A DNA stretch of 63,854 nt, filler included, from Dugesia japonica (GCA_001938525.1; 6 parts of 6 records of this genome joined end to end with filler, not necessarily neighbours in it), one strand, 5' to 3'; positions 1 through 32,896 are shown, numbered from the whole stretch's first letter. Notes: generated from the sequence alone by a model not told the origin. Numbers and translations: made by a program.

Positions 1-389
1 ATTTGAAAATTATTTGTAAAATCAAAAATTTGACTCCCTCACCCCCCGTGACGTAATGAAATTTAATCCTAATGCATTTAGTTAGAAATTGAAAATTGCA
101 TCATAAAATGCATCTTTAGGTAACTATTGCGTTACTGTTTTTAAATTTTCCTGTGTATTTAGTTGGGAAAAAATTGGGCTCACAAATTATGTCATGAGAT
201 TAATTTCATCGGTTAAATTTTATGTAATAGGATTAACTTTTTTTGAATTTTTCCAATGTATTTAGTTGGGAAAATTTTTTAGGCTTTTTAGCTGGAAATT
301 TATTCGGTTACGTTGAATGAGGTAAATTTTTGATTAGGTTTTATTAAAAATTTCCTTGGTGAGGTCAAATAAGGGGTATCAAGACATTA

Positions 390-1005
390 TCCCCTTGAAC
401 AATTTCCCTCCGGACAATATCCTGACAATATACGTGATCTACAACCCATCCGGCAACGAGCAAATAATCCAATTCTAGTTCCATTATCTGCTGAAAATTT
501 TATCTTACCAGATAAATACAAATTAACAATCAACGGTCAGGATTTTTCATTGAAAATTAAGATGAAATCTTAATTTCAGCCCTAGCGTTCGTTCCTCCAC
601 CAGATGTGATGGCTGCATTTGAAGAGTTGTCTAATAAACTTCTGGCTGAAGCACAACCTGACACCTACATTGGCAGACCACAGTGACGAGGATGTCGTCC
701 ACTTTTCTTTGAAAGTGATTTTTGGAACATGTATCAACGATCACAAGATGAACTTCAGAGATCAAACAACTCTGTTGAAGGATGGCACAGAAGTTTCCAG
801 TCAAATTTTGGCTGTAATCATCCTAATTTTTAAAGTTTCCTCGACTGCATCAAACGTGAACAAGCCCTGCAGCAAGTACACTTGACACAAGCTCTTGCTG
901 GCCACGCATCTCAACCTGGAAGAAAGACTTATTCAGATCTAAAGGCTTGAATACTGACTATTGTACAAAACGTTGGAAATCGTAACAAATTGGATTATTT
1001 ATATA
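390..1005 (+). mobile_element. MULE (Mutator-like) transposase remnant, internally deleted
   Basis: Manual translation gives ALAFVPPPDVMAAFEEL (from 579) and WNMYQRSQDELQRSNNSVEGWHRSF...HPNF*SFLDCIKREQ (from 723), matching the MULE C-terminal RTNNxxEGWH motif. Contains stops and frameshifts. TIR-like ccccttgaacaatttccctccggacaat at ~391. Confidence 0.8.
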
Positions 1006-1289
1006 TGTATAACCATCCCGTCGGATTTGGTGACAATTTTTGAAAATATCAAAGGTATCTTAGATTTAATTATAAATCAGTCTATTTGATTGAGAATTTT
1101 TCACTTATTCTAAATATGTAAACCTAAAATCATCAAGCATTAAAGATAAAAAGTAATATGGAAAAAACAAGAACAAAATTTGAGAGTCACTGAGTAACAT
1201 AAAATAGGACGATAATTTATTTGGCAAGGTCAATTTTGAGTGGTATTTAAGATCAAATTTTACACTTCACCAATCCTCAGACAACAATA

Positions 1290-1445
1290 CTCTGCACTCT
1301 GTACATTAGTAATCAGTCATCAGTTCTTTTGAACTCCGTACACTAGTGCTCAGATATCCAAATTCTGCAAGCTGTTCATTAGTGCTCAGTTAATAATACT
1401 CTGCTCACTGTGCATTGATCTTTCAGTTATCAATGGTTTTCTCAC
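1290..1445. repeat. Imperfect tandem repeat, ~36-37 bp unit, 4 copies
   Basis: ctgtacattagt / ccgtacactagt / ctgttcattagt / ctgtgcattgat recur at ~1299, 1336, 1372, 1408. Confidence 0.7.
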
Positions 1446-2004
1446 TCTTTGCAAGTCTTTACTCATCACTAGTGGTAAATGCACTGTTTAATTAGTATTT
1501 AATTTTTTAGCATATTATATATTTTTTACTTGTAATTTTGAAATTCAATTAGATTTCATGTGCATTTTAATTACTGTTCTATTTTTATCGTTAAAATTGA
1601 ATAAAAGATTAATTTATAATATGACATTTTTATTAAGATTGATTCATTAAAATAATTTATAATCATTTATTAAAAATAATCCAGATATTTTATTGAATAA
1701 ATTAAGCATGGTGAAATGATTAATTTTCAATGTGTAATTTGATTAAAACTATGCTTTTGTTGATAAATTGAATTAGGCTTTGAATAAATTTTTAAGGTAA
1801 TTTAGAAAATAAATTAGATTTCATGTGTAAATTTTTATGATTAAGTTAAAATTATAATATAAAATGTTTATTAATTATTGGTGAAATTTTGAAATATTTT
1901 TAAATCAAATTAAATTTCGCATGTGATTTTTAATTCATGTTTAATTTATAATAGAAAAGTTTTATTTAGCATTGATTCATTGAAACAATTAGATGATATC
2001 AAAT

Positions 2005-2207
2005 ATTGTGTATAGTAAGACTTAATGATAGTGAGAGTTGTGTTTGTTAAGAGCTGTTTGTAAAGAGTATTGTGTTGATATAACTGTTGATAGTGAGAAT
2101 TATGTATGTTAAGACTTAATGATAACGAGCATTGTGTATGTTAATACTTCATGATAGTGAGAGTTGTATATGTTAGGAGTTGTTGGTAGCGAGTATTCTA
2201 TATGTTT
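2005..2207. repeat. Imperfect tandem repeat, ~32 bp unit, about 6 copies
   Basis: Consensus ttgtgtatgttaagacttaatgatagtgagag repeated at ~32-bp period. Confidence 0.8.
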
Positions 2208-2599
2208 AAATACTCTTCCGAAAATATTAATATTTGAAATCAAGAAGATTTACTATGAATTTATTTGAATGAATTATTAAGGCAAGAATCTTAACAGTAT
2301 TAGAATCACTATTACAGAAAACATTATGGAAATTTTCAACAGTGAATAAAAGGTTCCTGTAAATTTTTAACGGTGATTAAACAGATTGTGGAAATTTTAC
2401 CCAGGTTTAATAAAGTTCTTGTCTTTTTTCAATGATTTCAAATCTTTGAAATATTTTCCTATTCCTTTACATAATAATTTTAAAAATTAAAAGGTTTGTG
2501 TCATTTTTCAACGCTGTTTGAAAAGATTGGAAAATAAATGAAAAGTAGGCCAAAATCAGTTGTTCATGAATAACTCCACTCTGGTTAGTCCCAGAATCT

Positions 2600-2890
2600 T
2601 GTGGTAAGAAAAATTGGAAAGAAGTGTTATCTGGTCAATGGGATTTTGCAACTAGAAAACGTTATTATCATCAGAGGGACTACCACAGGGATTGGGAAAT
2701 TGGGCCAATAACAACCCAAGAAATAAAAATAAAACAAAGACTCAAACATTACATGGGGGGTTTAAAAATAGACGCCAATGGCGTGACAGAAAACGGTAAA
2801 AAATTCTCAGAAATCAAAGTCTACACCAATAAAAAACCAGAAATCGGAATTAAAAATAGCTGGCCAATGCTGATCAAATCGGGTTGCATC
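2600..2890 (+). CDS. Unknown basic protein fragment (family M5), homologous to 33100-33290
   Basis: WDFATRKRYYHQRDYHRDWEIGPITTQEIKIK...IDAN aligns with WDKKNGERRGYLQESQKKGWKIKPIT*QENKLK...LDxN at 33.1-33.3 kb. Runs into an N gap. Confidence 0.45.
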
Positions 2891-4846
2891 NNNNNNNNNN
2901 NNNNNNNNNNNNNNNNNNNNNNNNNNNNNNNNNNNNNNNNNNNNNNNNNNNNNNNNNNNNNNNNNNNNNNNNNNNNNNNNNNNNNNNNNNNNNNNNNNNN
3001 NNNNNNNNNNNNNNNNNNNNNNNNNNNNNNNNNNNNNNNNNNNNNNNNNNNNNNNNNNNNNNNNNNNNNNNNNNNNNNNNNNNNNNNNNNNNNNNNNNNN
3101 NNNNNNNNNNNNNNNNNNNNNNNNNNNNNNNNNNNNNNNNNNNNNNNNNNNNNNNNNNNNNNNNNNNNNNNNNNNNNNNNNNNNNNNNNNNNNNNNNNNN
3201 NNNNNNNNNNNNNNNNNNNNNNNNNNNNNNNNNNNNNNNNNNNNNNNNNNNNNNNNNNNNNNNNNNNNNNNNNNNNNNNNNNNNNNNNNNNNNNNNNNNN
3301 NNNNNNNNNNNNNNNNNNNNNNNNNNNNNNNNNNNNNNNNNNNNNNNNNNNNNNNNNNNNNNNNNNNNNNNNNNNNNNNNNNNNNNNNNNNNNNNNNNNN
3401 NNNNNNNNNNNNNNNNNNNNNNNNNNNNNNNNNNNNNNNNNNNNNNNNNNNNNNNNNNNNNNNNNNNNNNNNNNNNNNNNNNNNNNNNNNNNNNNNNNNN
3501 NNNNNNNNNNNNNNNNNNNNNNNNNNNNNNNNNNNNNNNNNNNNNNNNNNNNNNNNNNNNNNNNNNNNNNNNNNNNNNNNNNNNNNNNNNNNNNNNNNNN
3601 NNNNCTGGCCAATGCTGATCAAATCGGGTTGCATCCAGAAAGCTATTTAAACCCCCTGAAAACTTAGCAAAAATTATCATTTTCTAACACAAAAAACTCT
3701 ATTAATTCAGTGTAAATCGTGAACTTTGAGTATAATTAATGAAATTTGTGGAATCATCAACAAGAAATTCGACACCTCCAGTGGTTTAATTATTATAAAA
3801 TTAACAAATGAAATTATTGAGAATTTAAGAAAAGAAAATCAGTAGATACCAAAAATCCGGAGAAAACATTTCTAAATCAAACTTCGTGACTTTATTACTC
3901 CCGTTGCAGCAAAGAGAAATTTAACAATAAGTAAGCATGAGTTCATCAATTTTGTTATTTTGTTGTTTAGTGAATGTGGAAAATTACTTGCGGTTATTTA
4001 TCCAATAAAGTTTAATAATCATCTTTTTTTTTAACTTCTATGATATCTAAAATTTCATAAATTTTNTGAATAATAACCATTCAATTGGCATTCACTAGGT
4101 GTTGTGAAATGAAATCTAATGACTGAAATTTGCCGCATAGTTGTCCCGTAATTTTATTATAAGTACATGATAAATTTCCTGAAAAAAAATCTGATCATCG
4201 GATATCAGTCAATGGAAAGTTACAATATGATTCGATATCACTACAGTTACGGCGCTCAATATTAGTACATGCAACCACGTAAATACAGATTCATGGCGGT
4301 TATATCTGGCACATTCCCACGTCGAATATGGAAAATACACCTACTGAATATAACATTTATTGCAATTATTTCCGTGATATATATTTTCTACCATATCCAC
4401 TTTAAGCATCTGTTATAACCAAAGTCAGCTGTTTTTCTTTTCTTGTCTTAAGGCATGCAAACACCATTATTGACACAGACACGCTTAATTTGAATGCCAC
4501 CGTAATTATTAACGATATAGCTCCCATCAGTAGGACAGTAGTATATTTCAGTATAAGTAACAATGAAATATCTGGGCAATATGTGTAACATGANNNNNNN
4601 NNNNNNTCGGTTTGATCACTTACCAGATTCAGGGTTCATACTCTATAAGTTTTAATGACGTCGTTGTTTGGATTGCACTTATGAGTAATATCGTTAAAAT
4701 CACCATGGCTAACATTACTATTGTGTTATAATTGCATACAATTTCATGACTAATATCATCAGTGTTCATTACTGTTGATTTAAATATCACATTATATTTA
4801 TATTAATTAATAAATATTGATTATTGTTAATGATATAACTTTATCA

Positions 4847-5161
4847 CTATAGGGATATTCCAAAACCCACAGTATCATCTAACACTCTTAGTAATACCAC
4901 AGTGGTTATTTCTTTAGACGGAAAATAAGTATAATGGATAACGTTCCGTATGTCGTGATCATTACGATCATCATCACGCCTGTCATGGTTATTATGTTTC
5001 TTATCAGTGTCACCGATGACCAGTTTTTTTTCTTCTGTGCTATAGTCATCTACCATGACAAAATTACCTATATTAATACGGATTTATGGGTTATCGGTAA
5101 CGGCAGGGTCATGGCTTACATGATGGCGTTGATTAAATTTGGGTTGTGCAGCAGGCATAAT
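4847..5161 (-). pseudogene. Divergently oriented small ORF (Asp/His/Asn-rich) upstream of cassette ORF M1
   Basis: MPAAQPKFNQRHHVSHDPAVTDNP*IRINIGNFVMVDDYS... continues in frame into the 69-aa ORF 4847-5056, with one stop. Weak similarity (P...NP...IN) to a minus-strand frame at ~30950-31050, the equivalent position in the second cassette. Confidence 0.3.
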
Positions 5162-5200
5162 GAGTTCCTTTTTTAAGTATATAAATTATTAATTTAACCA

Positions 5201-5383
5201 ATGTCTGGTGAATTAAGGAAGTCACTGAAGGTGAGATTGAAGCAACGTGAGGCCTCTCGATTAAGGCAGCTATTGGTCCATCTTCTTACCCGAGGTAAGG
5301 TAGAACACCCCGACGAAACCGATTTAGCTTGTTTCGTCGAAATGTTCCCACTACTACTTCAGGTGGATCTTGACGAAGCGTGA
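5201..5383 (+). CDS. Cassette ORF M1, 60-aa unknown protein
   Basis: Intact ORF with a homolog at 31133-31315 sharing HLLTxGxxEHPDETDLxCFVEMFP; most third codon positions differ between copies. AATAAA downstream at ~5426. Confidence 0.75.
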   Translation: MSGELRKSLKVRLKQREASRLRQLLVHLLTRGKVEHPDETDLACFVEMFPLLLQVDLDEA

Positions 5384-5574
5384 CAACCCTCCTGTGAAAT
5401 ATAATAACTGTCATGCTTTGATTTAAATAAAGTCGAATAAATAGTTTAATCATCACTCTGAATTTATTTTATCGTAATTAGTTTATTCTTTTGTTATTTT
5501 ATTATAAATTATTTTCATCATAATTCAGTAAATTTAAATATTGATCATAACTGTTGAAAAATAATTACAGTAGG

Positions 5575-5985
5575 ATGGAGTACAAATGGTAGGTACTATT
5601 GGACAGGCGCACAAGACGTACGGTGTTTAAGAAATACACCAACCCCTATGACCGTAATGCGGGCATCCTGACTGACTATTCGAATCTGTCTAGTGAAGAT
5701 GCGGATAATGAGAGAGAATGAGCTGCTACTGAGTGCCAAGCTTTTTATCAATGTAGCGGCCCCGATCCCACCCGAGAGATGCTTCACTGTGTCACCATCA
5801 TAGATCCAGTAACTAACCAGATTACTAGTACGTGGCGGGACGGTCCTGCGTTGGTGCCCGTGTGGGTCGTCCACCTACCACGGACTATTAGATTCTCCGC
5901 AGATATAGGAAACACCTTTTGGAACCTAAGGAATATCGCTAGCGGAGGTGAATCGGAAAATAACGCGCCAAAAAATGAAGCGTAA
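5575..5985 (+). pseudogene. Cassette ORF M2, unknown protein with two in-frame stops
   Basis: MEYKW*VLLDRRT...NPYDRNAGILTDYSNL aligns with MESIWERTVDR...NPYNQDAGILVDR*NL from 31433. Confidence 0.6.
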
Positions 5986-6202
5986 AGTCAATGAATGATT
6001 TTTTCATTTTTACTACTTGTTGGTTGTTGTAAAAAAATAAAAATTGTGTTAAGAAATTTTATCTTCCCTTTCTTTTAACTGAGAAGGTCCACTTAATTGA
6101 TTCCGTAATTCTGTTAGTTGATCTTTTTATATTAATTGTTTCAAATTAGTCGAAGTTTCGCTTGTTAATTAACCACAAATTTCTACAATGTATATTTTGC
6201 AG

Positions 6203-6561
6203 TGCATTCCTCACTGAACAGAACCACGGCTCCGATCAAAAAGATGAGGGATGCCAGCGAGGACCAGGAAATGACNTGGGACCTCTATCGCCTCACGAAG
6301 CGTCGCTGGGAGGCAAAGGTGGCNACCTCAAATAGTAAAGTACTTCGGTATAAGAAAAAATGCATCGCCTTTAAAAAGGAAGCCAAAGCCTCACACACTC
6401 GAGAACGAGTGTGAAAGGGGCAATTTGAGTTCTTCGCAGAAATTATCCGGTCCCACCATGACCGAGAGAATAGACTGGTCAGCGACATATTGCATCTCAA
6501 GGAGAAAATGCCTCTCAAACCCTTGATGATAGATAAAAGCACCCAAACTCCACAACCGTAG
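6203..6561 (+). pseudogene. Cassette ORF M3, coiled-coil-like protein ending in DKSTQT (one TGA at a Trp position)
   Basis: Homologous over its full length to 31965-32323 (HSSLNR...EMTWDLYRL...RYKKKC...PLMIDKxTQT). Begins at acceptor ttttgcag|TG. Confidence 0.75.
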
Positions 6562-6724
6562 ATACCCGGTATTATATGACTATGAAAATAAACATTTCTT
6601 TATGTTATTGTGACTTTGTTTTCATTAGTCTATTCCTTTTAAGTTAAAATAAAATTGTTGTCATCAAATATTAGGACTAATATAGTTCATTGATGTTTTA
6701 TCTTTAATATTTTACTCGTTTCAG

Positions 6725-7086
6725 TGCCATGTATCCAGTTGCCCCGTAGTCTAAAACGATGCCACCGACTCATCCAGAAACTGCTACTCGAGAGACACTT
6801 TAAACGCTAATCTGAGCGTGCTTTGCTCTATCATTTAACGCAACGAAATAGACTGATAAAGCGGTTGGACGTGATTGTAAAGAAACAAAAGGACTTAGCT
6901 GAACACACAAAACAGCTCCTACAGCACAAGGTCGAATTTTTGAAGCGTTACATTGCCGACCTGTCACGCCAACTGGGCAATGCTGCATATCTCAACTGGG
7001 ACGATAATGGCGACTCAGTGTTGTTCGACTTTATACCAGAAGAGCTGACCCAGTGGTTAGACCTGGGTGCTCTCGATGATTTGTGA
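6725..7086 (+). pseudogene. Cassette ORF M4, basic region + leucine-rich coiled coil + acidic/aromatic tail (one stop)
   Basis: Three homologous copies (here, 10986-11368 -, 32444-32839 +) share KQxDLA...K(V/I)(E/D)F...I(A/S)DLSxQ(L/I)GN and QWLDx. Begins at tttcag|TG. Confidence 0.75.
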
Positions 7087-7142
7087 ATTATAAAATAATA
7101 TACAGTATTGATAGTAGTTCTTGTTCATTTTATTATTTTTTT

Positions 7143-7329
7143 CGTGAAAGTAAGGAACCCGAATTAAAGGTGTACAAGTGAGCACCTCCCGTAAAGGGTG
7201 AGGGTCAACCACTCTGCGCTGAATATCTAACCTAGGGGCGTTAGATTAAATTCTTGAGAGAGTACCCCTGAGAACCGTTTTTATCCGGCCAGCATCGTTT
7301 TCACCATGAACTCAGGTGGGACACCAACA
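7143..7329 (+). ncRNA. Putative structured RNA, copy A (unrecognised family)
   Basis: One of four homologous copies. Stems GGTGTA/TGCGCT, TCTAAC/GTTAGA and CCTGAG/CTCAGG covary with the other copies. Invariant TAAATTCTTGA. Confidence 0.6.
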
Positions 7330-7681
7330 GAATAATTATAGTAATTATTTGATTATAAAATGCCTGAATTTAAAAGGACTTTAGTTGATCAGGTAAATGA
7401 TGGTTTGAAAAACGAAAATAATTCAAACATGAAATGTAAAAAGCTAACTTAAAGAACAAGAAACAAAGAAAGAAGAATTTAATAGAGAATAAGATACAGA
7501 AGAAGCATACGAAGAGGAAGCATATAACATAGGAACAGGTAAAGAAACAATTGAGTGAGTTCAAAAAACTATCAAAAAGCTTTGGATAGAAAATTTCAAC
7601 TGTTAATGGAAAATGGATCAATGTGACTGTTTGTATTTAAATAAACATTTTGAAATTTAAACAAAGTCTTCGTTTTTTAAT

Positions 7682-7969
7682 ATATTGCTAAAGGTTCCAA
7701 AAGAATCGACAAGGAAATTGTTACAGTTATTTTCAACATTTGTCATAGATGATTTGCTAGATATTATTGTAAATATTATTCGTGGTAATTTAATTATCAG
7801 TAAAAAGAAATAAACTAGAACTAAGCGTCATAAAAGGTCACTGCTTTCAATTGTANATACAAAGAATAAGAAATTGATGAGAAAAATAATATATAAACAA
7901 AAGGGAGGATTCCTTTCTGTTCTATTGCCAATCGCATTAACAGCTTTAGGACTAATAAATTTCACATAA
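7682..7969 (+). pseudogene. Polinton/adintovirus small basic protein with adenovirus pX-like C-terminus
   Basis: ...NIIRGNLIISKKK*...KRHKRSL...YKQKGGFLSVLLPIALTALG resembles the QxGG|FLxxLL protein found upstream of Polinton integrases (xGG|x protease-site-like). Confidence 0.65.
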
Positions 7970-8079
7970 ACAATGGGTAACTTACAATCATTATCAACAA
8001 TTTATTTCAAATTTATATCAAATTGTTGTAATGGACAAAATCAAACCAATATGAACAGACTCAAAAAATCCAGTAGGGT

Positions 8080-9066
8080 TCAACGGAGTGGAAAAACTAT
8101 CGAAAGCAAAAGACAATTTAAAGCGAGACAAGAAAGCGGTTATCAAACCAGTTAGCGTACAGTCTGAACAAGCCATTGTTTAAAAGATTCCCAACAAGAC
8201 CGTATAAAACCTTTGGTATTGATGATTTATGGCAAATGGATTTGATGGAAATGATANCTTATTCGAGAATTAATAAAGGATACAAGTATATTTTGTCATG
8301 CGTTGATGTATTTAGTAGATTTGCAAGAGTTGTACTAATAAAATCAAATTCTGCTAATGATATGGAAGCTGCAATGAAATCAATTTTCAAAGACAGGCAT
8401 CCTGATAATTTGCAAACGGATTTGGAAAAAGAATTTTATAATTAAAAAGTCAAAAATATTATTAATCATCTGAAGATTAATCATTTTTCTGTATTTCTAC
8501 AATAGAAAGCAGCATATGTTGAAAGATTTAATCGAACATTGAGAGATGCATTGAAAATGTATTTTGCATGCACTGGTAATAAAACTTGGATACACGTTTT
8601 ATTGAAAGTAATCGATATTTATAATCATTCAAGTCACAGAGAATAAAATGGAGCAAGACCTGTTGATGTATCATCCTATAATTCAATGAAATTATGGCTT
8701 TTGAGACAACAACCAAAAGCAATCAAGAAACCAAAATATAAAATTGGTGATCATGTTAGAATCTCAAAGATATCAGCTTCACCATTCATCAAGAATTTCG
8801 ATAGCAATTGAAATGATGAAGTATTTTATAAATCAAATATCAATACCAAACAGAATCCATTTATGTATGTGATTAAAGATCATTAAGAAAATATCATTGT
8901 TGGAAAATTCTATGAACAAGAATTACAAGTTATTCCACAACCAACAGTATTTAAAGTAGAAAATATTATCAGATCAAGGGGAATGGGAAAGTATAAACAA
9001 TTATATTTAAAGTAGCATGGATATGAAAAACCAAGTTGGATATCAGCATCTCAAGTAGTAATTTAA
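8080..9066 (+). pseudogene. Polinton/Maverick retroviral-type (rve) integrase with C-terminal chromodomain, degraded
   Basis: IDDLWQMDLMEM, GYKYILSCVDVFSRFA, LQTDLEKEFYN, KAAYVERFNRTL, KYKIGDHVRISK, GKFYEQELQ, LK*HGYEKPSWI; several stops and frameshifts. Confidence 0.9.
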
Positions 9067-9085
9067 ACTAAGAAGAAAAATAAAA

Positions 9086-10097
9086 ATGAGCAAAACGAAT
9101 AATTTCTATCCACCATTACCGAGTAATAGTTTTCCACGTATTCATCCTGATAATAACGCAAGTAGATTCTGTGTTGCACTTGAAAATCCCATTTACTTGA
9201 ATGAACAATGGGAAGTAGCCTTGATGGACTTTACCTTTATATATTCTGCCTTTCAATTATATAACAAACGATACATCCAATATGTAACAGGTAATATCAT
9301 GAGAGTAATGTAGAAATAATAATCAATAACAAAGAAAAATCATTGATGGTTCATGATGTTGGTTTTGTGGTGATTGATGAAAGATCATTGTCAATCNNNN
9401 NNNNNNNNNNNNNNNATGTTGTAATATTTGACAATTAAAAAGATGCTAAATAATTTAGATTTAATACTTTAATGAATAATATAGAATCGGATACTACCAT
9501 ACAATATCGAAACTTTAAAAACGATGATTCAATTGATATTGTGAAAATGAAATAAGTATTTTCAATAGAAACTAATAAATTCATATCTTTAAAAAATGAA
9601 TATTACATATTNNNNNNNNNNNNNNNNNNNNNNNNNNNNNNNNNNNNNNNNNNNNNNNNNNNNNNNNNNNNNNNNNNNNNNNNNNNNNNNNNNNNNNNNN
9701 NNNNNNNNNNNNNNNNNNNNNNNNNNNNNNNNNNNNNNNNNNNNNNNNNNNNNNNNNNNNNNNNNNNNNNNNNNNNNNNNNNNNNNNTTAATTCATTGGT
9801 TTTAAAAATCCAAAATTAATCACTAATCCACATAAAATGTTCATCTATAGTAAAATTGTTGAACCTATAGTTGTTGGTGGTGTTAATGTTCCTTTGTTGA
9901 AATCTGTATGGTTAGAGAATTGTGAAGATGATCAAGTAGCTCAGATTATAATCAAGAATCCAATGTATTTACCAGTTGCCACTTCATGTATAAACAATAT
10001 AAAAATAAATATTCAAGGAGATAGTGGAGAATTAATAAACTTTGCTAAAGACTCAAAAACTCATTTAACTCTACATTTTCGAAAAGTAAATGTCTAA
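9086..10097 (+). pseudogene. Polinton minor capsid (penton-like) protein, degraded and gapped
   Basis: N-terminal FYPPLPSNS...NNASRF...IYLNEQWEVAL and C-terminal FIYSKIVEPIVVGGVNVPLLK...NPMYLPV...GELINF...LTLHFR are the conserved ends of the Polinton minor capsid protein. Confidence 0.75.
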
Positions 10098-10386
10098 TCC
10101 CAATATTATTAAACTTTATAGTATCAGCCAAGCTGGTGGAGAATTGCCGTACTTTGTAGGAAAACAGTTTGTATATAGATGNTTGAAAANAACTGGTGGA
10201 TTTGCTTTGCCTATTCTTAGACGTGTTGTAGCTATTGGTATGAAAACAGCACATGATGTTACAAAAAATAAAACAAATATTTTACAGTCACTCAAAACAA
10301 ATGCTATGACTGAATTCAAAGAATTTATGGCTTCTCCAAAAGTAACGAAAATAATGCCAAAGGACAACACCACAAAAGAATGTTGA
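10090..10386 (+). CDS. Polinton small core-like protein (QxGGxLPxFxG family), probably degraded
   Basis: SQAGGELPYFVGKQF...FALPILRRV directly after the minor capsid gene, the usual position in Polintons. Confidence 0.6.
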   Translation: MSNPNIIKLYSISQAGGELPYFVGKQFVYRXLKXTGGFALPILRRVVAIGMKTAHDVTKNKTNILQSLKTNAMTEFKEFMASPKVTKIMPKDNTTKEC

Positions 10387-10431
10387 CATTTTTTTATATT
10401 ATTTAGCATATATTATACATCTTTGACACAC

Positions 10432-10590
10432 CTTTTACCATATTAACGGAACCTTTAAGTATCATTGACCATATTACTATGGGACCTTTAAACATCACAG
10501 ACCATATTACGATGGAACCTTTAAACATAATTGACCATATTACTGAAACCTTTAATCACAATAGACCATATAATATTGGAACTTTTTTTT
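10432..10590. repeat. Tandem repeat, ~30-33 bp unit, 5 copies
   Basis: gaccatattacgatggaacctttaaacatcatt-like unit. Followed by a 14-bp ctccatttttaatt x3 at ~10678-10722. Confidence 0.85.
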
Positions 10591-10741
10591 GATTTACCTA
10601 AATTTAAAATAAATTGACATTTAAAAATATAATTTGAATTAATCATATAAAAACAATTAACACATAAAAGAAATAAACTCACCATTTTTTAATTCTCCAT
10701 TTTTCATTCTCCATTTTTAATTTTAAATACAACTAAGTAAA

Positions 10742-10926
10742 TGTTGTGGTTCTACCTGAGTTAGATGGTGAGAAACACGGCTGAGGGAAAACAGCCCTCA
10801 GGGAAACTTTTTCAAGAATTTAACCCACCGTCCCTAAGGTAGGTTTTCAGTTCATGGTGGTTGACCTCTCTCTTAATGGGAGGTTCACACTCATAAACCT
10901 TTGTACTCGGGTTCATTATTTCCCCT
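10742..10926 (-). ncRNA. Putative structured RNA, copy B
   Basis: Reverse complement reads GGGGAAATAATGAACCCGAGTACAAAGGTTTATG...CCTACC/GGTGGG...TAAATTCTTGA...CCTGAG GGCTG/CAGCC CTCAGG...CAACA. Lies downstream of the minus-strand M4. Confidence 0.6.
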
Positions 10927-10985
10927 TATATTAGTAGCAAAAAAATACGATATTAATTATATACATTTTATTTCATAAAAATTAT

Positions 10986-11368
10986 TTATATCAAATCCAG
11001 CGCTCCTGGATCTAACCACTGGGTTGGATCGGTCAACTAAAAATTGAAGGCGGNAATGCCGTCATTGTCGTCCCATTGAGTCCAGGTTGTGTTGCCTATT
11101 TGGCGGGAGAGATCGGCGATGTATTGTTTAAGAAATTCTATCTTTCGCTGTAAAAGTTATTTCGTCTTTGCTTCTAAAGTGTTGGTTTGAGTCGCCAAGT
11201 CGCTCTGCTTCTTTACGATTAGATCTAATTGTTTTATTAACTTATCTCTCTAGGCCACTTGTTTGAGGATGACTCGGCCCGCCTTCCTTTTAAGATGTCT
11301 CTTTATCAAGAGTCGTTTCATAATCCGATGACACCATCGTAGGCTATTAGGGAAGGTTATACGTGGCA
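10986..11368 (-). pseudogene. Cassette ORF M4, second copy (three in-frame stops)
   Basis: tctttag|TG PRITFPNSLRWCHRIMKRLLIKRHLKRK...KIEFLKQYIADLSRQIGN...QWLDPGALDLI*. Confidence 0.75.
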
Positions 11369-11400
11369 CTAAAGAAAAGAATTATTAATGATATTCGAAG

Positions 11401-11500
11401 NNNNNNNNNNNNNNNNNNNNNNNNNNNNNNNNNNNNNNNNNNNNTTAATTAATTAANNNNNNNNNNNNNNNNNNNNNNNNNNNNNNNNNNNNNNNNNNNN
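11401..11500. other. Artificial scaffold linker (44N-TTAATTAATTAA-44N)
   Basis: The same 100-bp construct, with TAA in all six frames, recurs at 20711-20810, 29664-29763, 39472-39571 and 55429-55528. Confidence 0.95.
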
Positions 11501-12757: not shown

Positions 12758-14809
12758 CTCCATAGTATTGAAGTAATGGCTTACTTTCGGAAGCAATTAA
12801 GGCAGTTTAGATCTTGAAATAGAAGGGATAACTTTGTATTCTCTCCTAGATTAGCTAAGTAAAGTTCAATACGTTTTTAAAGGTCATTTGTTTCATATAA
12901 TATTTTTATTATTATAACTGATTAGTATGAGGATGAATTAGTTAAATTACAAAGAAAATAATGATTCAGTACGTTGAGTGTATTGCCTTAGTCGATTACT
13001 GACCGAAAGCATGACGATATCGAAATCGAAAGAAGCGTACAAAATATTGATAGTGTATGAGAAAGACAGGTGAAGAAACACAAAAGACAGAGACATACCA
13101 AGTTGATAAGGAAGAAAATCAATCGTTTTATAGTAATTTTAGAAGTGGCAAGCGAGAAAAGAAGCGTATGGAAATCTCGTTAGAAAAGCGGTTGATGCCC
13201 AACAAATTCGTTCTCAAGAATTACAGCGGTGATGACTAAAGGGAACGTGTAGTTATTGTACACACTCCAGCTTTTTCGGAACCAGTGAAAACGTTCGGTG
13301 AGTTTGACGTTGGATACGGAGCTCACTGAATAATATAAAATGAGTGCACAGCATTTTAGCTTATGTTTTAAAATCAATATATTTTAATTTTAAACTGTGT
13401 CTATTTTATGATCTTGATCATTTATTACAGTTAAAATAGGACATCTTCTTATTTAATACCATCCATTAATTAATGTTTAATTTTATTTATTATAGAACGC
13501 AAAAATCTAAAAAATGTGAATGATTTGGACTCGCTGAAATATCTCAAGACAAATATTTCAGTCGATACCCAGAAGAATTCAGAATTGCATGGCTTTGAAA
13601 GGAGAAAAGACAAAATATTAAATTTTGTACTATTTATACTATGTAACATTGACTTTATAACTGAATAACAATTTTTATAATCAAGTTCATTCTTTTACAG
13701 TTACTTTCAATTTAAAGTGCATTTTTATATTCATTAAATAATCATTCAGGGATTACCAATGCATTTGAATACGACAGTAATTTCATTTGCGTTTATTATT
13801 AAATGATTGTATATCACAGGACAATATGATTTTGATAAAATAAATGAAGAATTTATCAACAATTTAGAAACCAAAAAAAAATCAATTTCAACACGAACTC
13901 CATAAAAACTTACCATGTAACATGGAATACTATTTCCGAGAACTAAAAGTATAAATAAAATAATAAAATCTTAAATTTGCAAAAAAATTTATTAAATCTT
14001 AAAGCAAAACAGAAGACTTGATTTAAAATTTACTCACTATTTTCTGATAGTAAACAATCACATGATACTGATACAACAGTTTGTTGATGATTATTTATAT
14101 ATTGATGAATATCCGTATTAGGAACAATCGATATATTTTCAACAGCATACAATATTTTCAGATTGTCATAATTAGATGAGTACCTAAAATAATTTAAGAT
14201 AAAGGGAAAATTATATTGAATTAACATTTGAATTAATACGGTTATTTCTTTTGAAGCGCCTTTTTTCATATTCTATTTATTTTTCCACGTGTAAAAGTCA
14301 AATTTATTGGTTACAGTTACATTAATTTGAATCTTTCAATTAATTTTTAGAGGAAGATTTTAATATTGAAATGAAATGTGACTTCTTCTGTTTCAGAAAT
14401 AAGAGATTACATATAAAGTCGGTCATAAAATACAAATCTTCGTCGTTTAGAAATAGTTCGCCACAGCTAACAAACATTATAAAAATAGAAATAATCATAC
14501 TATGCATTCTAAGGATGAAAGGTGTGAAACAACGCAATGCAATTATCATGTAATGTGCTTCAATAAAATTCAATTCTACTTGTTTCTCAAAAGACTAAAT
14601 GAATAATCTTAAATATGGGAAGATTTAACTTTTGAGGTTATTTATCAATTATAAAATGTCTATTTAATTTTAAATGTTTTAGAAAAGGAAAAGAAACACT
14701 ATTTTTCACTTTAAACGTTAAAATTTGATAAAATTTACAAGTTATACATTCAGTGTTTAAAGAAACCTGTCGTATAAAGCACCCAGTCAAAATAGCACCA
14801 TCAAAAAGT

Positions 14810-15038
14810 TTATAATAATTATTATTATTGTTATTAATNNNNNNNNNNNNNNNNNNNNNNNNNNNNNNNNNNNNNNNNNNNNNNNNNNNNNNNNNNNNNN
14901 NNNNNNNNNNNNNNNNNNNNNNNNNNNNNNNNNNNNNNNNNNNNNNNNNNNNNNNNNNNNNNNNNNNNNNNNNNNNNNNNNNNNNAATCCCAAGAGAAAA
15001 AAGAACAATACAAAATAGCTTAAAAAATAATAATAATG

Positions 15039-15071
<33 letters not shown>

Positions 15072-15121
15072 NNNNNNNNNNNNNNNNNNNNNNNNNNNNN
15101 NNNNNNNNNNNNNNNNNNNNN

Positions 15122-15155
<34 letters not shown>

Positions 15156-15316
15156 TTAATACATAATAATATAAAATAATATATAATATAATAAAATTAT
15201 TAATAATATAATAATAATATGATTAATAATATAATAAAATAAAATATAATAAAATTAAATATAATAATAAAAAACATAATATAATAAAATAATATATTAA
15301 TAATAATAATAATTAT
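14810..15316. repeat. (AAT)n microsatellite / low-complexity tract
   Basis: Direct reading; partly gapped. Confidence 0.9.
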
Positions 15317-15975
15317 AAAATGAATGTGACTTCTTCTCTTTCAGAAATAAGAGAAGTCACCATCGTATAATGAGATATCAATAAAAAACATAGTATCATA
15401 AATCAAATAGTTATTGAAATAAATAAAACACTTCTAATATTCAAAATGATTACGCAGTAATTCTCAGAGATCAATTTTACATTGTACAAATTAAGATGAA
15501 TGAGAACTGATTGAAATGATCGTATTGTGATATGATGTAAATATTTGTACAAAAGACGTCTGTAGAAAACATACACGTATACACATGAGTTGAAAAGGTT
15601 TGGTTCATTTTGTTTAACTCGGTCTACCCAAGAATTTTTCCAACCTCGAAACCAAAAACTCATCTAAATCATGTCTAAAAATGGTTCATATTCACTGGTT
15701 TATTTTAGATTATTTTAAAGGGATCAACAGAAACTCTATCGTTAAATATTGCATGATTAGTCAATATATTATCATTGAATTTCGCTAACGAGTTCTGGAT
15801 TTCTTTGCTACATTGTCAGTTCCATAGATGGACCATATTTATTAATAAGACAAATGTATATTCTAGCAAAATCATTGAATTAATGGTTTAATAATTTACT
15901 TCACCACATTTTATTAATTTTTTAAAATAAATCGTTTGTTTTATTAATTTAGCATATTTCTTTGTTAATGAATTA

Positions 15976-16121
15976 TTTCATTAAATTAAAAGCTTCTATC
16001 AAAATGTTGTTTTGTTTCTTTTTTGTTAGATATTCGAATCTTCGACTATTGTTTTCCTCAGGAATATCGTAAATAATAAAAAGAAACAAAGCAAAATTTT
16101 GATTGAACCTTTTGATGAAAT
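15976..16121. mobile_element. Short MITE, copy 1 (copy 2 at 44657-44834)
   Basis: Inverted ends cattaaattaaaagcttctatcaaaatgttgttttgtttc / gaaacaaagcaaaattttgattgaacc; internal sequence shared with the 44.7-kb copy. Confidence 0.7.
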
Positions 16122-17239
16122 CTCAAATGCAATCAATGGTTAAGTCCTACAAATTATTTGGTTTCCATTTTTCTATTATAAGAATAATGGCTTTTAATTT
16201 TTATCAATTTATTTTATATTTATGTTTGAATTAAACTCGAACTCAACAGACATACATTAACACACACGTAAAATAAATTGATTTATAAAAATTGTACCAT
16301 TTTCCTGAGATTGTAATGATAGTATATGGTTGAAGGCAATCAATTTGGTTTTGAGATGCAACAACAAGAATCTTTTCATTTTCCCCATTTTCAATGCTTT
16401 TCGACCACAGAAATAAAAAGTTAATTGTTTTTGTAATTTCAATTATCATTAATTGCAATTTCTCATATTCTTCTTTATTATCTGCATTTTCTAAATAAGA
16501 AAGCTATCAAAAAAANNNNNNTTTTGAAATTTCTATTATAAAGATAGTTTAATGGAAAATGTTTTAATGATAAAGATTGAAATCATTAAAATATTACAAA
16601 GTTTATTTTCAACTTTAGAGAAATTACTTGTTGAATCAAAAAAATAAAGCAATAAAAGCAACAAAGGAAAATTTAATACCATTGCTAGGCGGAACAGAAA
16701 CGCTCACCGTAGAGCTTAAACTTATCCATAACCAATTTATATAAAACAAAAGACATGTTTTTATTTTGTTCAGTGAATCAGAATAAATATTTCATACAGA
16801 GCCAAACAATTTGAAAATCAACTTCAATTTCCAAAATACATTTAAAGATATATTTACAAAATAACTAAAAGTTTAAAATCTTAATTTAATTCATTTATTT
16901 TTTAAAATATGTTAATTTCCATAAATGAAGTTTAGCTTTCAAAAAATCTAAACTCTGTACTCAACAGTTTATTAAATATATAAATTTACATAAATTGATA
17001 TGAATATTACTACAGAGTTATCACATGGATTGGTAATAACCTGGCAAGCGAGTTCGCAGAAAGAAATTTTCTGCACACGTTAAGACGGGGGAAATAATGG
17101 TGGAAACACTATTAAAAGTAGCAAATTCAGTAATGTAATTTTCAAGATAGAAAAGCCCCAAATCAATCTAGCTATAGTTTCTAAGCAAGAACTGATTCTG
17201 AAATTTGTTAATGCTAGTGAACTGTTGAAACAGTAAGGA

Positions 17240-17400
17240 GGAAACAAGGATCCTGGTGTCAGACAAAGGAAAATTTATTCTGAGTTGGATTCTATTCTAC
17301 TTGTATTAGCGATGGAACTAATGGGGTCTGTGTGGCCACCTGCATGTATGGTCGAACGAGGACTGAAGTTCTTGTACCATGGAAGGACTGATTTGTGGCG
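17240..17400 (+). mobile_element. Possible LTR-retrotransposon integrase remnant
   Basis: ILVSDKGK and PPACMVER in nearby frames resemble the SDNG and NGxxER integrase motifs. Confidence 0.3.
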
Positions 17401-19089
17401 AATTCGTATGGAAATCTTTTAGTTCGATACCTCTTAAAAGAGGAGAAAACCTGACTACATGGTTAGGTATTAATATATTTAACAATTTGGAGGTTTTACA
17501 TATATTGATGCAAATTTTTAAATATATAAATATATAATCATGTAATAAGAAACACTAAACTACATAGTTCTTTAAGGAAAACAATGAAAATCGATGGTGT
17601 TCTTTTCTCTAAAAATTATGGAATGGAAACATTTTAATAAATCAAGTATTTGGAGTTAATCTTTTTTTGCCAACGAAATCTGAGCTAAAAAGTCTTTGAC
17701 GGGTGTGAAATATGACTAAGAATATTATAATATTTTCATATTGACCTTTATATAAGTAAATTGACATATGTATGTGATAATAGGTGAATTGACTGTTTGA
17801 ATGTGTGTATGATTTTAGTGCTCAGACATTATTACATAACTGATTCTTCAAAAGTTATATATCTATATATTTATATATTTGTTACAGTGTTATTTTGGAT
17901 TTAAATATATATTTTATGCTTAATTCTATTTCCAAGTCTAACAACGGGATAAAGTCTTTTCAAAATAGGGAAGCCATTATCTTAGAATTCTAAAAATCTT
18001 TGAAGCGTTTTTGACGTAGCACAAACATATAAAAACACGACGGTACCTTTTCTGGTTGGGAACATATTTCATTATCGCTGTAATCCTGTTCTTCTTGAAT
18101 CTACTCGGCTAATGATAAAATTGTCTATTCAGAAGGTGAATTAGCAATGATCAAGTTAGAATCCACAATAATATACTGGCTAAAATCAATCAGTCAAATA
18201 AGATGAAACAAGTTCAAATAAACTGTCATTTACAGGATGCTCATCAATATACTATACGAATTAGTTTTCGAAAATGCTATTAAACCCAACATGTCGAAAG
18301 TAATTTATTATCGTGTAATCAGCAATCTTTTCCAATGAATCTTTAAGAATATGACCTGCTTGATGCAGTCGAAAAAAGATTATCATCGAAAACTTGGAAT
18401 GCTAACAATAACTAAAAAATATCATTTTGATCTAAACTTTCTAATTTATTTAAACTTTAAAAATGCGATCAATGGTTAAATCCAAAAATTATTCTCGAAA
18501 TAATCGTAATTGCAAAATAAAAATGTGTCAAAATTTTAAGATATAGAAGTGTAAAAATTTAATTTTCGTGAATATTATAATTCTTTATCACAGTAAACTT
18601 ATTTCTTCTGATAATTTTTACAGACTTCAAGTTAAAAGAACCAGTAAAACTAGGCAGCTTTAACTCTTTTGGGTATAGTATGTTAAAAACTTATCCATTT
18701 CAAAACCTGAATATTAACAATATGATATAATTTACTTTGGTGAAAAATTAATAAACATATATAAAAAATATAAAGCAAATTTCTCATAAATTCTATTTTT
18801 TTACAAAAAAATTATGTTAATATCAAAAAGATTTCACTAATACACTTACTGTGCTTAATAAAATACTTGCTGAAATAATCGGAAAGAACCACTTCACTCT
18901 TTTTACGAGATAATATTTTATTCAGTGTATTCACGTGGCCATTCCTATACAAAAATTTGTGTAAAAAATGAAATAAATTACAAAAATATAAATGACTCAT
19001 TTAAATCGTCAGCTACTCACATCAAACAAAAGGTAAGGAAAAATAAATACATTTTTTATATAATGAAATTAATAAAGTTCTTAGTGTGT

Positions 19090-19640
19090 ACAGGATTTCC
19101 CATCAGTTTTCACACATTGCTGCAAGCGGCGTTAAAAGACCAACATTTGTTAGCAATTGTAAGATTATTTTAGAACATTTATTTGAGATAAATTCCATTA
19201 GTTGCTCTTTAACGCAAGGGTTTCGCTTTTAAACTTCATTTTTCAGTCAACCCCAATGAAAATATCGGACGGAGAAAGGTCTTTGGATCGTGATAGAAAT
19301 TTTTTATTAAGAATGTGTACGAGTTCCCTCTTGTTGAAATCATATCTTCTGTAAAAGTTTCTTTCGTTTTAGTAACGGAACTAAAACTTCTTCTATCATA
19401 CGCAAATAACCATCCCCTTTGATGGTATCTTTTGCATTCTCTGGAGGAACAACGCTCGCAGATCTACCTTATTGAGTTAAGTTCTAGTTTCCATACATTT
19501 TTGTAGATGCTCCTGATGGTTTTGTTACTTGGAATATTTTCAAATTTCTTTCTTGTTTATTTCCGACAAATCGATGTCGAGCCATCAGCAATACAATTTC
19601 CGTTCTTTCTTTAATTTTCAGCATTTTGAAATTTTGGTTT
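19090..19640 (-). mobile_element. Tc1/mariner transposase remnant
   Basis: LSRSKDLSPSDIFIG (cf. WPPRSPDLxPxDFFLWG) and N-terminal MLKIKERTEIVLL on the minus strand; internally deleted. Confidence 0.6.
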
Positions 19641-19943
19641 TTCGAATATTAAAACAAGTTTAAAACAATATTAAAACAAACCCGCATTATTATTTCATAG
19701 ATTTTCCCTCAGACTGCTGGCTTCTAAGACAATATATATATAAGCCGATGTCATTTTTAGATAATAAATTTTAGAACACTGATTTGAACTTTTTAATAAC
19801 ATGGCCTAAATTGTGCTGTTGAAATATTTGTTTTCTTTATATAAGAGAATAGTCCAAATAATATGCCTATGTTAATTTTTTCATGGAAATATCTGTTAGT
19901 TATAAATGGTTCGCAGCTTTAAATGACATTTCTCACTTTAGAC

Positions 19944-20353
19944 CAGTAGTGGGCAAATGGTGTGTCGCGGCAAGTGTTCTGGTGTCGCGAAAAATAATTA
20001 AAAATTACAAAAAACTCTTCACAGCGGCAAGTCCATACAAGTAGAGGGATAGTAGCNNNNNNNNNNNNNNNNNNNNNNNNNNNNNNNNNNNNNNNNNNNN
20101 NNNNNNNNNNNNNNNNNNNNNNNNNNNNNNNNNNNNNNNNNNNNNNNNNNNNNNNNNNNNNNNNNNNNNNNNNNNNNNNNNNNNNNNNNNNNNNNNNNNN
20201 NNNNNNNNNNNCTTATGTTTTTCCTGGTTTTTCAAGAAGAATTTAAATAAATGTTTTTTGGTACCGTTTTAAATTGCGAAAAAAGAAATTGTAGTGTCGC
20301 GAAAAAAAAATTACTTAGGTGTGTCGCGGCTTGAAAATGTTTGCCCACCACTG
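19944..20353. mobile_element. Non-autonomous hAT element (MITE)
   Basis: TIRs cagtagtgggcaaa / tttgcccaccactg, perfect 8-bp TSD ctttagac, subterminal gtgtcgcg repeats. Confidence 0.9.
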
Positions 20354-20810
20354 CTTTAGACTAATAAATTAAGCATTTAAAAGCATAAATAATCATACTT
20401 TTTCCATTTTTTAAAATCATTTTTCGGAGTAAATGGTTGTATTTCTGAATCAAAGAGAAATGATTTTAAATCCAAGATTTCCGAATTTTGTTTTCCAAAT
20501 TCATTATAAATTGGGGAATTCATTTTATCAATTTTTAATTCGTCACAAGTCTGAATTTGAATATCAAGAAACATTAATTAAAATGGAGTGTTTACATTAT
20601 CATCACTTAGGGAATGAAAATGTTCTATTTCAACTGAATTTTCGCATTCTTTGGCATCATTATATTGAAATTTTTCTTTAATAGTTATTTCCTTAAAAAT
20701 ATTTTAATTANNNNNNNNNNNNNNNNNNNNNNNNNNNNNNNNNNNNNNNNNNNNTTAATTAATTAANNNNNNNNNNNNNNNNNNNNNNNNNNNNNNNNNN
20801 NNNNNNNNNN

Positions 20811-21560
20811 CAGGCCAAAAAATGTAGCTTTCATGGCATTTTCGATTATGTTGGTGTAATCCGAGTCCAAGAATTTCGGACCCATTGTACAACATCGTCA
20901 ATTTTTGGCTTAATTAAGTTTTTTCTTGTATTTCGCTCTTGTTTTTATTCAATAAAAGGGTTTATCTCTTCTTGAATGTAATCTTTAAATAGTTTGTTAA
21001 TAACAATGTCCAAACTTTGCAAATATGGAGTGGTGCCCGAAGGCATTATTAATTGAAGAGAGGAATTCTTTCATAGATCTCAGTCTGTGAGTACTTCCAG
21101 AATTCAATATTTGAAGCCCTCTTTGTCCATATCGAAATACCGGTGGCCTTATCCTTTCTAGACATTTTTTATGACATCTTGTGTACTCCAGGATTTTGCT
21201 GATTCGATTAAATAAATACCGTTTTTATAAGTAATTTAATTTTTTGAACTTTTTATAATAATCATGGGTAGTATTTTTTCAGTATCGAGTCAAAAGACCA
21301 AAATACATGTCAGTCTAGAGCTTTCATAACCTGTAAACTAAACTGCTTGCACTATGTGTGACTGTTGTTTGGCTATTTCTCCCAAAGCTTTTTCATTCAT
21401 TGCTATAGAAAAAATGTGTTTATACTGTTTGATAATGATATGATAAATTAATACTATTTAGGCAAGTGCGCGTCAAATAATTTCATGGTCTGGATGTTTG
21501 AAAAGAGTTGCAGACCTCCGTAGGAACATTCTGTAAATTTAAATATAAATTTTTTAAAGT
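20811..21560 (-). mobile_element. pogo/Tigger (DDE_1) transposase remnant
   Basis: IMPSGTTPYLQSLDIVINKLFKDYIQ and TGYESSRLTCILVF*LDTEKILPMII match pogo motifs. Confidence 0.8.
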
Positions 21561-22837
21561 CAATCAAAGTGCCTTGTATTTACTTGTATTTATTCAAAAA
21601 AAAAATACACGAGTGCTTTTAATAAAGAGAGTACTTCAGNNNNNNNNNNNNNNNNNNNNNNNNNNNNNNNNNNNNNNNNNNNNNNNNNNNNNNNNNNNNN
21701 NNNNNNCATTCAAATAAATACCCGTTAAAATAAATATATAATGAAAGACAAATTTATTTTTATTATTTAATTTATTTGACCATTTAATTAGTTACTCGAG
21801 CCAAATTCGTAAGAGGCTAAGGTTATACACTTAGAAAAAATACATTTAGTAACAAATACACGTTTTAAAACTTGGAGCTCTAAATACAGCGCGTTACATT
21901 TTCATATTTATATTATGATTCAAATTTATCGTATAATTTAATTAAATGTTTTTATTTTTACAAAATTAATTTTATTGAATTATCTTGAATATTTTTACAA
22001 TTAGTTTACAATTGTAAACTAACGTTTGTAAAAACATTAAATGTGACAATCAACAAAAATTTTGACGATAAACTTCGAAAATTTCAAGAAATCAGAACTT
22101 TACAATTTATCATTTTACTCTATGAGATAAAATCATTAAATAAATCCTATCAAATTAAATTTTATTCTGTTAATAAAGTTAACTAAAAATGAATACATTT
22201 AAAGTCTAGACATACTGTCAGATTTAATTGTTCATTAGATAATTTTTGATTACCACTTGCAAATTTTAATTAATTATTCACTTAATATATATAAANNNNN
22301 NNNNNNNNNNNNNNNNNNNNNNNNNNNNNNNNNNNNNNNNNNNNNNNNNNNNNNNNNNNNNNNNNNNNNNNNNNNNNNNCATTAATTTATTATGAAATAT
22401 AAAATTTGTTTCAAAATACTGAACAACATTTTAAAACTTTATAAACCAATTTAATAATAATTATTATTTAAAAATTAAAAAATAATGTAAATATAAAATT
22501 TCCTATAAATCCATGATGCACACAAATTCTGTAATTTCAAGCACCTACATATAATTATCCCAATAAATTTACATGCACATTAATTTTAGTCATCTTTATC
22601 TAGATTTATAAATGATCAACCAATAGAAAGTGAATCACATAATCGATTTTCTTGTTACAGGCCTTATCATGCAGAAATTAATAATTTTTGCACACATTTT
22701 TATAAATATATAAACACGGAAAATTGCTTTAAAATTATTATTAAGAATTAACAAATAGATTTATTTAAATTATAATCAGTTTATTTGAGATTCTTAGTTT
22801 GGAATTATTTTGGAATATTTTCTGAACAAGTCACAAA

Positions 22838-29391
<6,554 letters not shown>

Positions 29392-29595
29392 AACCGACAA
29401 TACTTTTAAATACAATTTATTTCTCTAGTATATATTATTGAACATTATTTTTGTGAAATGATTTTATAGCACTGGATTTGCTTTATTCTTTGTTATTGCG
29501 ATGTTATTTTATTAAATAACATGTTTTGTATTTTCTAAGTTAATTTGATTTAAAAAATTTATATGTTTATAATAATTTCATTTATTAAGTAACAA

Positions 29596-32839: not shown

Positions 32840-32896
32840 ATGTTATATTAATAAATGTTCCAAGAAGTATTTGGTATAAAATTTTGTGTAAGTTGA

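Follow-up and report, generated by a model that had tools for sequence, protein, structure and literature searches.

The genome of the planarian Dugesia japonica (GCA_001938525.1) carries a recurring cassette of four small genes, M1, M2, M3, and M4, followed by a structured element of approximately 185 nt. We tentatively read this cassette as the right end of a separate, abundant, and apparently undescribed mobile element, which in one copy likely came to lie beside a Polinton core through nested insertion or recombination. The stretch of DNA analysed (the window; 63,854 nucleotides) consists of short AT-rich contigs chained by N-linkers (11401–11500, 20711–20810, 29664–29763, 39472–39571, and 55429–55528), and neighbours across these joints are unlinked. 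A first-pass annotation of the window had reported M1-M2-M3-M4-RNA in the same order and orientation at 5201–7329 (copy A) and 31133–33085 (copy B), together with a partial third copy (copy C). The arrangement was confirmed on different contigs, and copy C was borne out at 11369–10742 on the minus strand. Copy C indeed holds only M4 and the RNA element, but its contig ends 32 nt before the M4 start, so that its truncation may reflect the assembly. A fourth copy of the RNA element (copy D) had been missed. Copies A and C lie on contig 1–11400, and copies B and D on contig 29764–39471. The cassette is thus confirmed as a real, recurring unit with the following parts, a slash marking a putative splice junction.

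M1, copy A: 5201–5383, plus strand, 60 aa, intact.
M2, copy A: 5575–5985, plus strand, 136 codons, stops at codons 6 and 49, own ATG 4 nt past a YAG.
M3, copy A: 6202–6561, plus strand, 119 codons, stop at codon 71, frame from an acceptor-like CAG/TG.
M4, copy A: 6724–7086, plus strand, 120 codons, stop at codon 29, beginning CAG/TG.
Structured element, copy A: 7147–7329, plus strand, two predicted hairpins, TAAATTCTTGA, a branched 3′ stem, and a CAACA end.
M1, copy B: 31133–31315, plus strand, 60 aa, intact.
M2, copy B: 31432–31745, plus strand, frameshifted, end approximate.
M3, copy B: 31964–32323, plus strand, stop-free in the sequenced part (40-nt gap), beginning TAG/TG.
M4, copy B: 32443–32839, plus strand, beginning TAG/TG, then a 142-nt gap; broken mid-gene.
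Structured element, copy B: 32901–33085, plus strand, the best-folding copy (z −2.5).
M4, copy C: 10990–11369, minus strand, stops at codons 40, 71, and 111, beginning TAG/TG.
Structured element, copy C: 10742–10926, minus strand.
Structured element, copy D: 33423–33606, plus strand, no M4 ahead.

The regions upstream of M1 gave no convincing alignment between copies A and B, nor did the regions after the RNA element. Decayed, hydrophobic, membrane-protein-like frames were observed on the minus strand upstream of M1 at 4080–5180 (A) and 30150–31130 (B), with no Pfam match and no significant match to each other. Between structured copies B and D, 33086–33330 on the plus strand is a decayed, basic, open reading frame (ORF)-like stretch of low copy with weak likeness to the ORF5 frame described below.

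Comparison of the copies showed that M1, M3, and M4 have been under past coding selection, and M2 weakly so. Protein identity was 55% over 58 aa for M1, 69% over 84 aa for M3, and 54% over 102 aa for M4 (A against C), with an overall range of 53–69%. Synonymous sites were saturated between copies (synonymous difference pS 0.84–0.94), and the ratio of nonsynonymous to synonymous difference (pN/pS) was 0.36 for M1, 0.19 for M3, and 0.31 for M4 (binomial p 5e-6 to 7e-17), none of them near 1. The purifying selection proposed from one block of M1 was therefore upheld; within that block, the codon pairs are synonymous as claimed, with 11 of 14 differences at third positions and pN/pS of 0.05. Homology of the M2 copies was supported by one 23-codon block (score 66, reached in 0 of 200 shuffles; pN/pS 0.44, p 0.03), but the tail was weak (9 of 200) and M2B is frameshifted. 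The reading frames were GC-richer than the spacers (0.42–0.51 against 0.18–0.31), as had been noted, and none of four spacer pairs aligned better than shuffles. AATAAA followed seven of nine ORF copies; its chance rate is high (867 of 2074 AT-rich 150-mers carry one), and its distance was matched between copies at 51 and 52 nt for M2 and 26 and 27 nt for M3, the end of M2B being approximate.

M3 and M4 had been listed as ORFs, but neither has its own start codon. In all five copies of the two genes, the conserved frame begins with YAG/TG past a pyrimidine tract (background, 138 of 2455 YAG), and no in-frame ATG occurs upstream before a stop. M4A has no Met in its 120 codons. Selection extends to the acceptor, with pN/pS of 0.15 in the first 23 codons of M3 and 0.33 in the first 29 of M4. 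Moreover, the G of the TG is kept in all copies, despite only 17 of 56 fourfold third positions being identical, which favours Met (ATG) over Val (approximately 0.3 cubed, the copies being not fully independent). The YAG/TG start and the lack of an own ATG suggest that an upstream exon ending in A completes the start codon. We regard such splice-completed starts of M3 and M4 as quite probable, and they are common to the model favoured here and to the Polinton, retroelement, and spliced-leader alternatives weighed below. M1 and M2 have their own ATG, 3–4 nt after a YAG in three of four cases. A donor inside M1 (AG/GTAAG in A) was considered and rejected, being absent in B.

The four copies of the structured element were 71–82% identical in DNA, while neighbouring synonymous sites are saturated. 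In their predicted consensus fold, a long hairpin, which contains an internal loop, and a short one are followed by TAAATTCTTGA, invariant and unpaired, and by a 3′ stem that branches. Nine of 38 pairs changed on both sides and 94% of 151 cells were paired, a level reached by 0 of 500 shuffles, while pairing fell to 30–41% in slid controls; this covariation support is overstated, as the consensus was derived from the same four sequences. An Sm-like motif, AAATTCTTGA, with one mismatch to RAU4-7GR, was invariant in all four copies; it is unpaired in the consensus fold, and unpairing costs 3.5 kcal/mol in A only. All four copies end in CAACA, that is, TGTTG on the minus strand, which fits the TGTNR end pattern reported for Gypsy long terminal repeats (LTRs) and Ginger transposons (PMC2836005). 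The flanks after CAACA differ (GAAT, AATG, TTTA, and ATAA), and diverse flanks start right after 33085 in 63 DNA contigs, whose loose ends agree only at 0.47. In the window's copies, the left boundary of the repeat is ill-defined. A candidate donor, A/GTGAG, lies at 7178 in copy A, and the bases before the conserved GT are ACAA, ATGG, ATGA, and ACGA in the four copies.

A search of the window against Rfam gave no match at the gathering threshold, only chance matches near A (E 7.6–9) and none near B or D. Likenesses to ribozymes, 5S, U5, U12, and an internal ribosome entry site were rejected, with no Rfam support for any. A pattern describing the RNA gave 52 matches in viral sequences, of which BLAST confirmed none, and no match in metagenomes. 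Reads from polyadenylated RNA over 32998–33060 and 7244–7282 came from another very abundant variant of the element and were mostly antisense; by eye, pairing in the second hairpin of this variant seems to be preserved, with an additional type of base pair. No RNA data set was listed as containing the queried stretch, which carries no weight as evidence. Two tandem arrays, of 33 nt (10437–10586, 4.7 copies) and 30 nt (33857–33951, 3.1 copies), were found 150–250 nt beyond copies C and D, respectively, and are possibly the ends of Polinton-type elements; the array region past D (33807–33990) is deep in DNA contigs.

We next consider the Polinton core beside copy A. The cassette had been proposed to be an undescribed accessory or early-gene region of a Polinton-like virus, one copy lying approximately 350 bp upstream of a Polinton core. 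An integrase region does follow copy A, but the core begins from 31 nt (ORF5) to approximately 300 nt (pX-like frame) after the RNA element, with the following frames.

ORF5: 7360–7626, plus strand, decayed basic ORF of an abundant Polinton-type family by contig depth.
pX-like frame: 7631–7969, plus strand, Adeno_PX E 0.009, below the curated cut-off.
Retroviral-type integrase: 8158–9063, plus strand, rve E 9e-11, six stops in 302 codons.
Minor-capsid-like and core-protein-like frames: 9086–10386, plus strand, no significant Pfam match.

The pX-like frame presumably belongs to a Polinton/adintovirus-type core, and 9086–10386 carries adintovirus motifs that we take to mark a minor capsid protein and a core protein. 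The proposal was right in that the cassette is coding, repeated in the genome, and of no known family, but native membership in the adjoining Polinton was not established. The GC content at third codon positions (GC3) was 0.37–0.58 in seven cassette ORF copies and 0.19–0.30 in five core frames, a twofold contrast; it was 0.22–0.23 in two host genes and 0.28 in a reverse transcriptase at 40802. A Polinton-type core follows only one of the three cassette copies (A), no core gene being present after B or C, and the end of the final core frame of A coincides with the start of the DNA lying downstream of C. In addition, contigs approximately 88% like ORF5 stop aligning at 7330–7343, at or near the CAACA end. 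Three contigs of run X2 have a loose end at 7330, the alignment of one X16 contig starts there (34 other letters and 13 gaps in approximately 390, with 3 or 73 letters beyond depending on the numbering), and in a further X2 contig 27 or more letters before 7343 are unaligned. Since a conserved structured element is expected to align more readily than the spacer next to it, those ORF5 relatives likely lack the element at this place. The GC3 contrast, the single core among three copies, and the junction at CAACA together make native membership doubtful.

Contigs and reads were mapped over 31753–36203 (4 of 24 runs) and 6325–10181 (4 runs, 2 of them common to both), with M1, M2, the M3A acceptor, and copy C outside these intervals. 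Summed contig depth, which is not a copy number, was 652–2786 for M4A, 13,421–21,042 for ORF5, 102,159–365,267 for the integrase, and approximately 8–18 for single-copy DNA; relatives of M4A were therefore approximately 5–30 times shallower than those of ORF5. Cassette RNA reads were few, on both strands, and derived from other copies. Reads from polyadenylated RNA over the structured element also came from other copies and were mostly antisense (14.6 against 3.75 and 18.2 against 5.56, with strand calibrated on the ribosomal protein S20e gene), with none on the 5′ part in B.

M1–M4 matched no known family among the collections searched, the large protein sets covering M1, M3, and M4 and the Atlas M1 and M3. 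No match was obtained for M4A or for the M3 and M1 alignments in a set of 5.8 billion proteins, or for the M4 alignment among 1.84 billion representatives. Pfam and PHROGs gave only weak coiled-coil noise for the cassette proteins (coiled-coil-type matches for M3 and M4), and PDB sequence searches were empty or gave chance matches; a likeness of M2 to designed Armadillo repeats was rejected, as no stretch passed. In the Atlas, M1 and the stop-free part of M3B each scored 0.88 at best, under the recognition level. The predicted model of M1 was helical at low confidence (predicted local distance difference test, pLDDT, 63.5) and gave no Foldseek match at E 0.001; the pLDDT of the M2 model was 36. 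No related loci were found for M1, M4, or the integrase in viral contigs, or for M3 in metagenomes. M3 has a basic, coiled-coil-like middle and ends in DKSTQTP (A) or DKGTQTS (B), an LC8-type TQT motif in both copies. The TQT anchor has favourable flanks in each, and DKSTQTP and KGTQTS mirror the validated LC8 binders BCL2L11 and SLC9A2 (PMC6607443, Table 1). With proteins such as BCL2L11, M3 shares the motif only and no wider homology; judged by this motif, M3 is a candidate ligand of the dynein light chain.

In the model that we favour, one promoter upstream of M1 would give a transcript cut at one of four polyA sites, and a short 5′ leader exon would be joined in cis to the acceptor of whichever gene is used. 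M1–M4 would be accessory genes used as alternative last exons: M1 and M2 would use their own ATG, while M3 and M4 would receive the A of the ATG from the leader and be translated only after splicing. Such splicing of the cassette mRNAs is suggested by the acceptor-like gene starts. M3 would dimerise as a coiled coil and bind LC8 by way of the TQT motif, and the structured element would be the terminal sequence of the mobile element, read as RNA or as single-stranded DNA. The TGTTG end points to a retroviral-type integrase, and polyA signals inside the element speak for replication as DNA rather than for a retroelement.

Several observations weigh against this model. Neither the leader exon nor a left end of the element was found, the regions upstream of M1 being unalignable, and Pfam detected no transposase, polymerase, or reverse transcriptase on either cassette contig except the Polinton integrase. 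No joint or leader was seen at any acceptor among the RNA reads and contigs listed, acceptor coverage being 0–3 reads; M4A had no reads in run X22, and the depth of M3B was below 3 per strand. The junction evidence comes from approximately five contigs among the matches listed, and the loose letters there share, by eye, a short word with the 3′ arm of the element and may belong to a far-diverged variant of it. The peak depth of the element core (404,821) is close to that of the integrase (365,267), which fits one copy per Polinton. Single-copy folding z-scores were modest (0.4 to −2.6) and both strands folded alike, which would fit RNA or DNA and either strand. Finally, many TQT peptides are reported not to bind LC8 (PMC6607443).

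The strongest alternative, less likely than our model but still a live one, would make the cassette a native part of the Polinton/adintovirus family, an accessory or early region with the same alternative splicing, B and C being rearranged or non-autonomous derivatives. Cassette A has the same orientation as the module leading into the integrase and lies 31 nt from it, and accessory regions are described as flanking such modules in vertebrate Mavericks (PMC8097293). Stop density is alike in cassette A (4 of 435 codons) and the adjoining core (8 of 673), the peak depths of the RNA core and the integrase agree, and short tandem arrays follow C and D. Known accessory regions of Polintons/Mavericks and adintoviruses, including 'Oncoid' and 'Adintoc', are likewise described as small orphan ORFs beside the integrase/minor-capsid module, repeated in mostly decayed copies (PMC8097293; PMC8502044, section 3.2). 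The cassette differs from them in its splice-dependent starts, core-unlike GC3, TGTTG rather than AG-type end, and missing core after two of three copies. The break in the alignment of ORF5 relatives at 7330 and the shallower depth of M4A relatives also argue against native membership. A search for Polinton ends found one AGTAGT, at 4537, with no closing-strand counterpart past C or D; it could be a left end, but the word occurs by chance at 0.33 per kb. Words like the AP-1 site and cAMP response element follow it at 4656, 4682, and 4747 (4537–4753), within chance rates. Six-frame Pfam searches of 1–2890, 3700–5199, 7330–10741, 29800–31131, and 33086–39471 revealed no protein-primed PolB, ATPase, major capsid protein, or protease, on decayed contigs of just 11.4 and 9.7 kb. 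Intact vertebrate Mavericks are reported to be intronless (PMC8097293), whereas M3 and M4 start at acceptor-like sites in five of five copies, with splicing being the likely consequence. Unlike the adintovirus Oncoid proteins, M1, M3, and M4 have neither LxCxE nor paired CXXC; the M1 motif is DLxCxxE, with one Cys in the block, and a likeness to adenovirus E1A CR2 was rejected on this spacing.

It is improbable that the cassette is the 3′ accessory region of an LTR retroelement, in which the structured element would be a short LTR whose 5′ copy donates the leader in cis. The TGTNR-type end in all four copies fits the TG...CA terminus of such elements (right end CAACA, 4 of 4), the element has greater depth than the cassette, as expected of solo LTRs, and the loose ends of 40 contigs before 32909 show, by eye, the inverted end word approximately 25 letters upstream. 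A mobile-element precedent for a start codon built by splicing is errantivirus env, which in the springer subclade is spliced to part of its start codon (bioRxiv 10.1101/2023.08.03.551782). There, as described, the leader gives AU for one gene, whereas the cassette leader would give A for two, and the cassette genes each have their own polyA signal, with no env, gag, or pol seen. A primer-binding TGG followed none of the four copies in either reading, and the sequence upstream of the putative LTR start is T-rich rather than polypurine, with just a 7–9-nt purine run inside the conserved start. Neither contig has a gag, reverse transcriptase, or env match, four sense-strand polyA signals would cut the genomic RNA, and no upstream copy of the element lies within 1.6 kb (A) or 1.4 kb (B). 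Ginger transposons share the TGTNR pattern, and in them introns are allowed and terminal inverted repeats are 40–270 bp long (PMC2836005), but all four flanks fit neither CCGG (Ginger1) nor RTATAY (Ginger2), and no transposase was found.

We give slightly less credence still to the structured element being an element-encoded, Sm-class spliced-leader (SL) RNA, trans-spliced to the cassette acceptors with a leader ending in A; this private leader system would be compatible with whichever element carries the cassette. SL RNAs typically bear a trimethylguanosine cap. The predicted topology resembles that of flatworm SL RNAs (PMC12582326, PMC2770079): two hairpins, the first bearing a donor-like GT next to an internal loop, an unpaired Sm-like motif interrupted by C (one mismatch, where up to two are allowed), and a downstream stem. 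The base before GT is A in three of four copies and the fourth has ATG-G, so that each copy, joined to a TG acceptor, would yield an ATG in frame. The AATAAA-to-acceptor spacing of 75–165 nt is operon-like, short intergenic distances being usual in operons. Known flatworm leaders end in AUG/GU, which is absent here, and the structured element, at approximately twice the 90 nt of Schistosoma SL RNA (PMC2770079), lies in a mobile element and would trans-splice only hypothetically. Moreover, there is no conserved promoter upstream of the element copies, the donor is weak (GTGTG in two of four) and was picked post hoc between two conserved GTs, M1B and M2B would be read out of frame behind the ATG-bearing leader of B, and the antisense bias and 5′ gap of the element's polyA reads do not fit an SL RNA. 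If the idea were true, a host leader ending in AUG would put the TG-start genes out of frame and only the element's own leader would complete their start, as a lock and key, making this an element-encoded spliced-leader system. Finally, an origin of the modules as exons of a single host gene, or as genes of a host operon captured in repeats, is highly improbable and largely refuted: the acceptors do resemble those of the host RPS20 introns, but every ORF has its own stop and mostly an AATAAA signal, the copies carry stops and frameshifts, their depth is hundreds-fold over single-copy DNA, their GC3 is unlike that of host genes, and no expression of these copies was seen over the intervals mapped.

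Other features of the window include the expressed ribosomal protein S20e gene (35340–35850, minus strand), which served as the strand and single-copy control; its reads showed two 41-nt cis introns and no trans-spliced leader. A type IV collagen gene with Collagen and C4 domains lies at 23000–29400 (plus strand), and a reverse-transcriptase remnant (RVT_1 E 4e-16) on another contig at 40451–41203 (plus strand). Remnants at 600–960, 36900–37600, and 38859–39341, which have no Pfam match at E 0.001, are presumably of a Mutator-type transposase, a Tc1/mariner-type transposase, and a Penelope-type reverse transcriptase, respectively. Palindromic or inverted repeats occur at 44650–44841, 42879–43896, and 21961–22064.

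Among the literature searched, in which Repbase and most subscription journals are not covered, no title or abstract described this cassette or an element-encoded SL RNA; within that literature and the collections used, the cassette is undescribed. If the model favoured here is true, the cassette would represent an abundant planarian mobile element with virus-style alternative last exons and splice-assembled start codons. It would bring together four protein families without detectable relatives, a probable ligand of the dynein light chain, and a structured terminus of unclassified type. An unnamed type of element would thereby be defined in a stem-cell model whose Polintons and LTR elements are reported targets of Piwi-interacting RNAs (PMC8532177).

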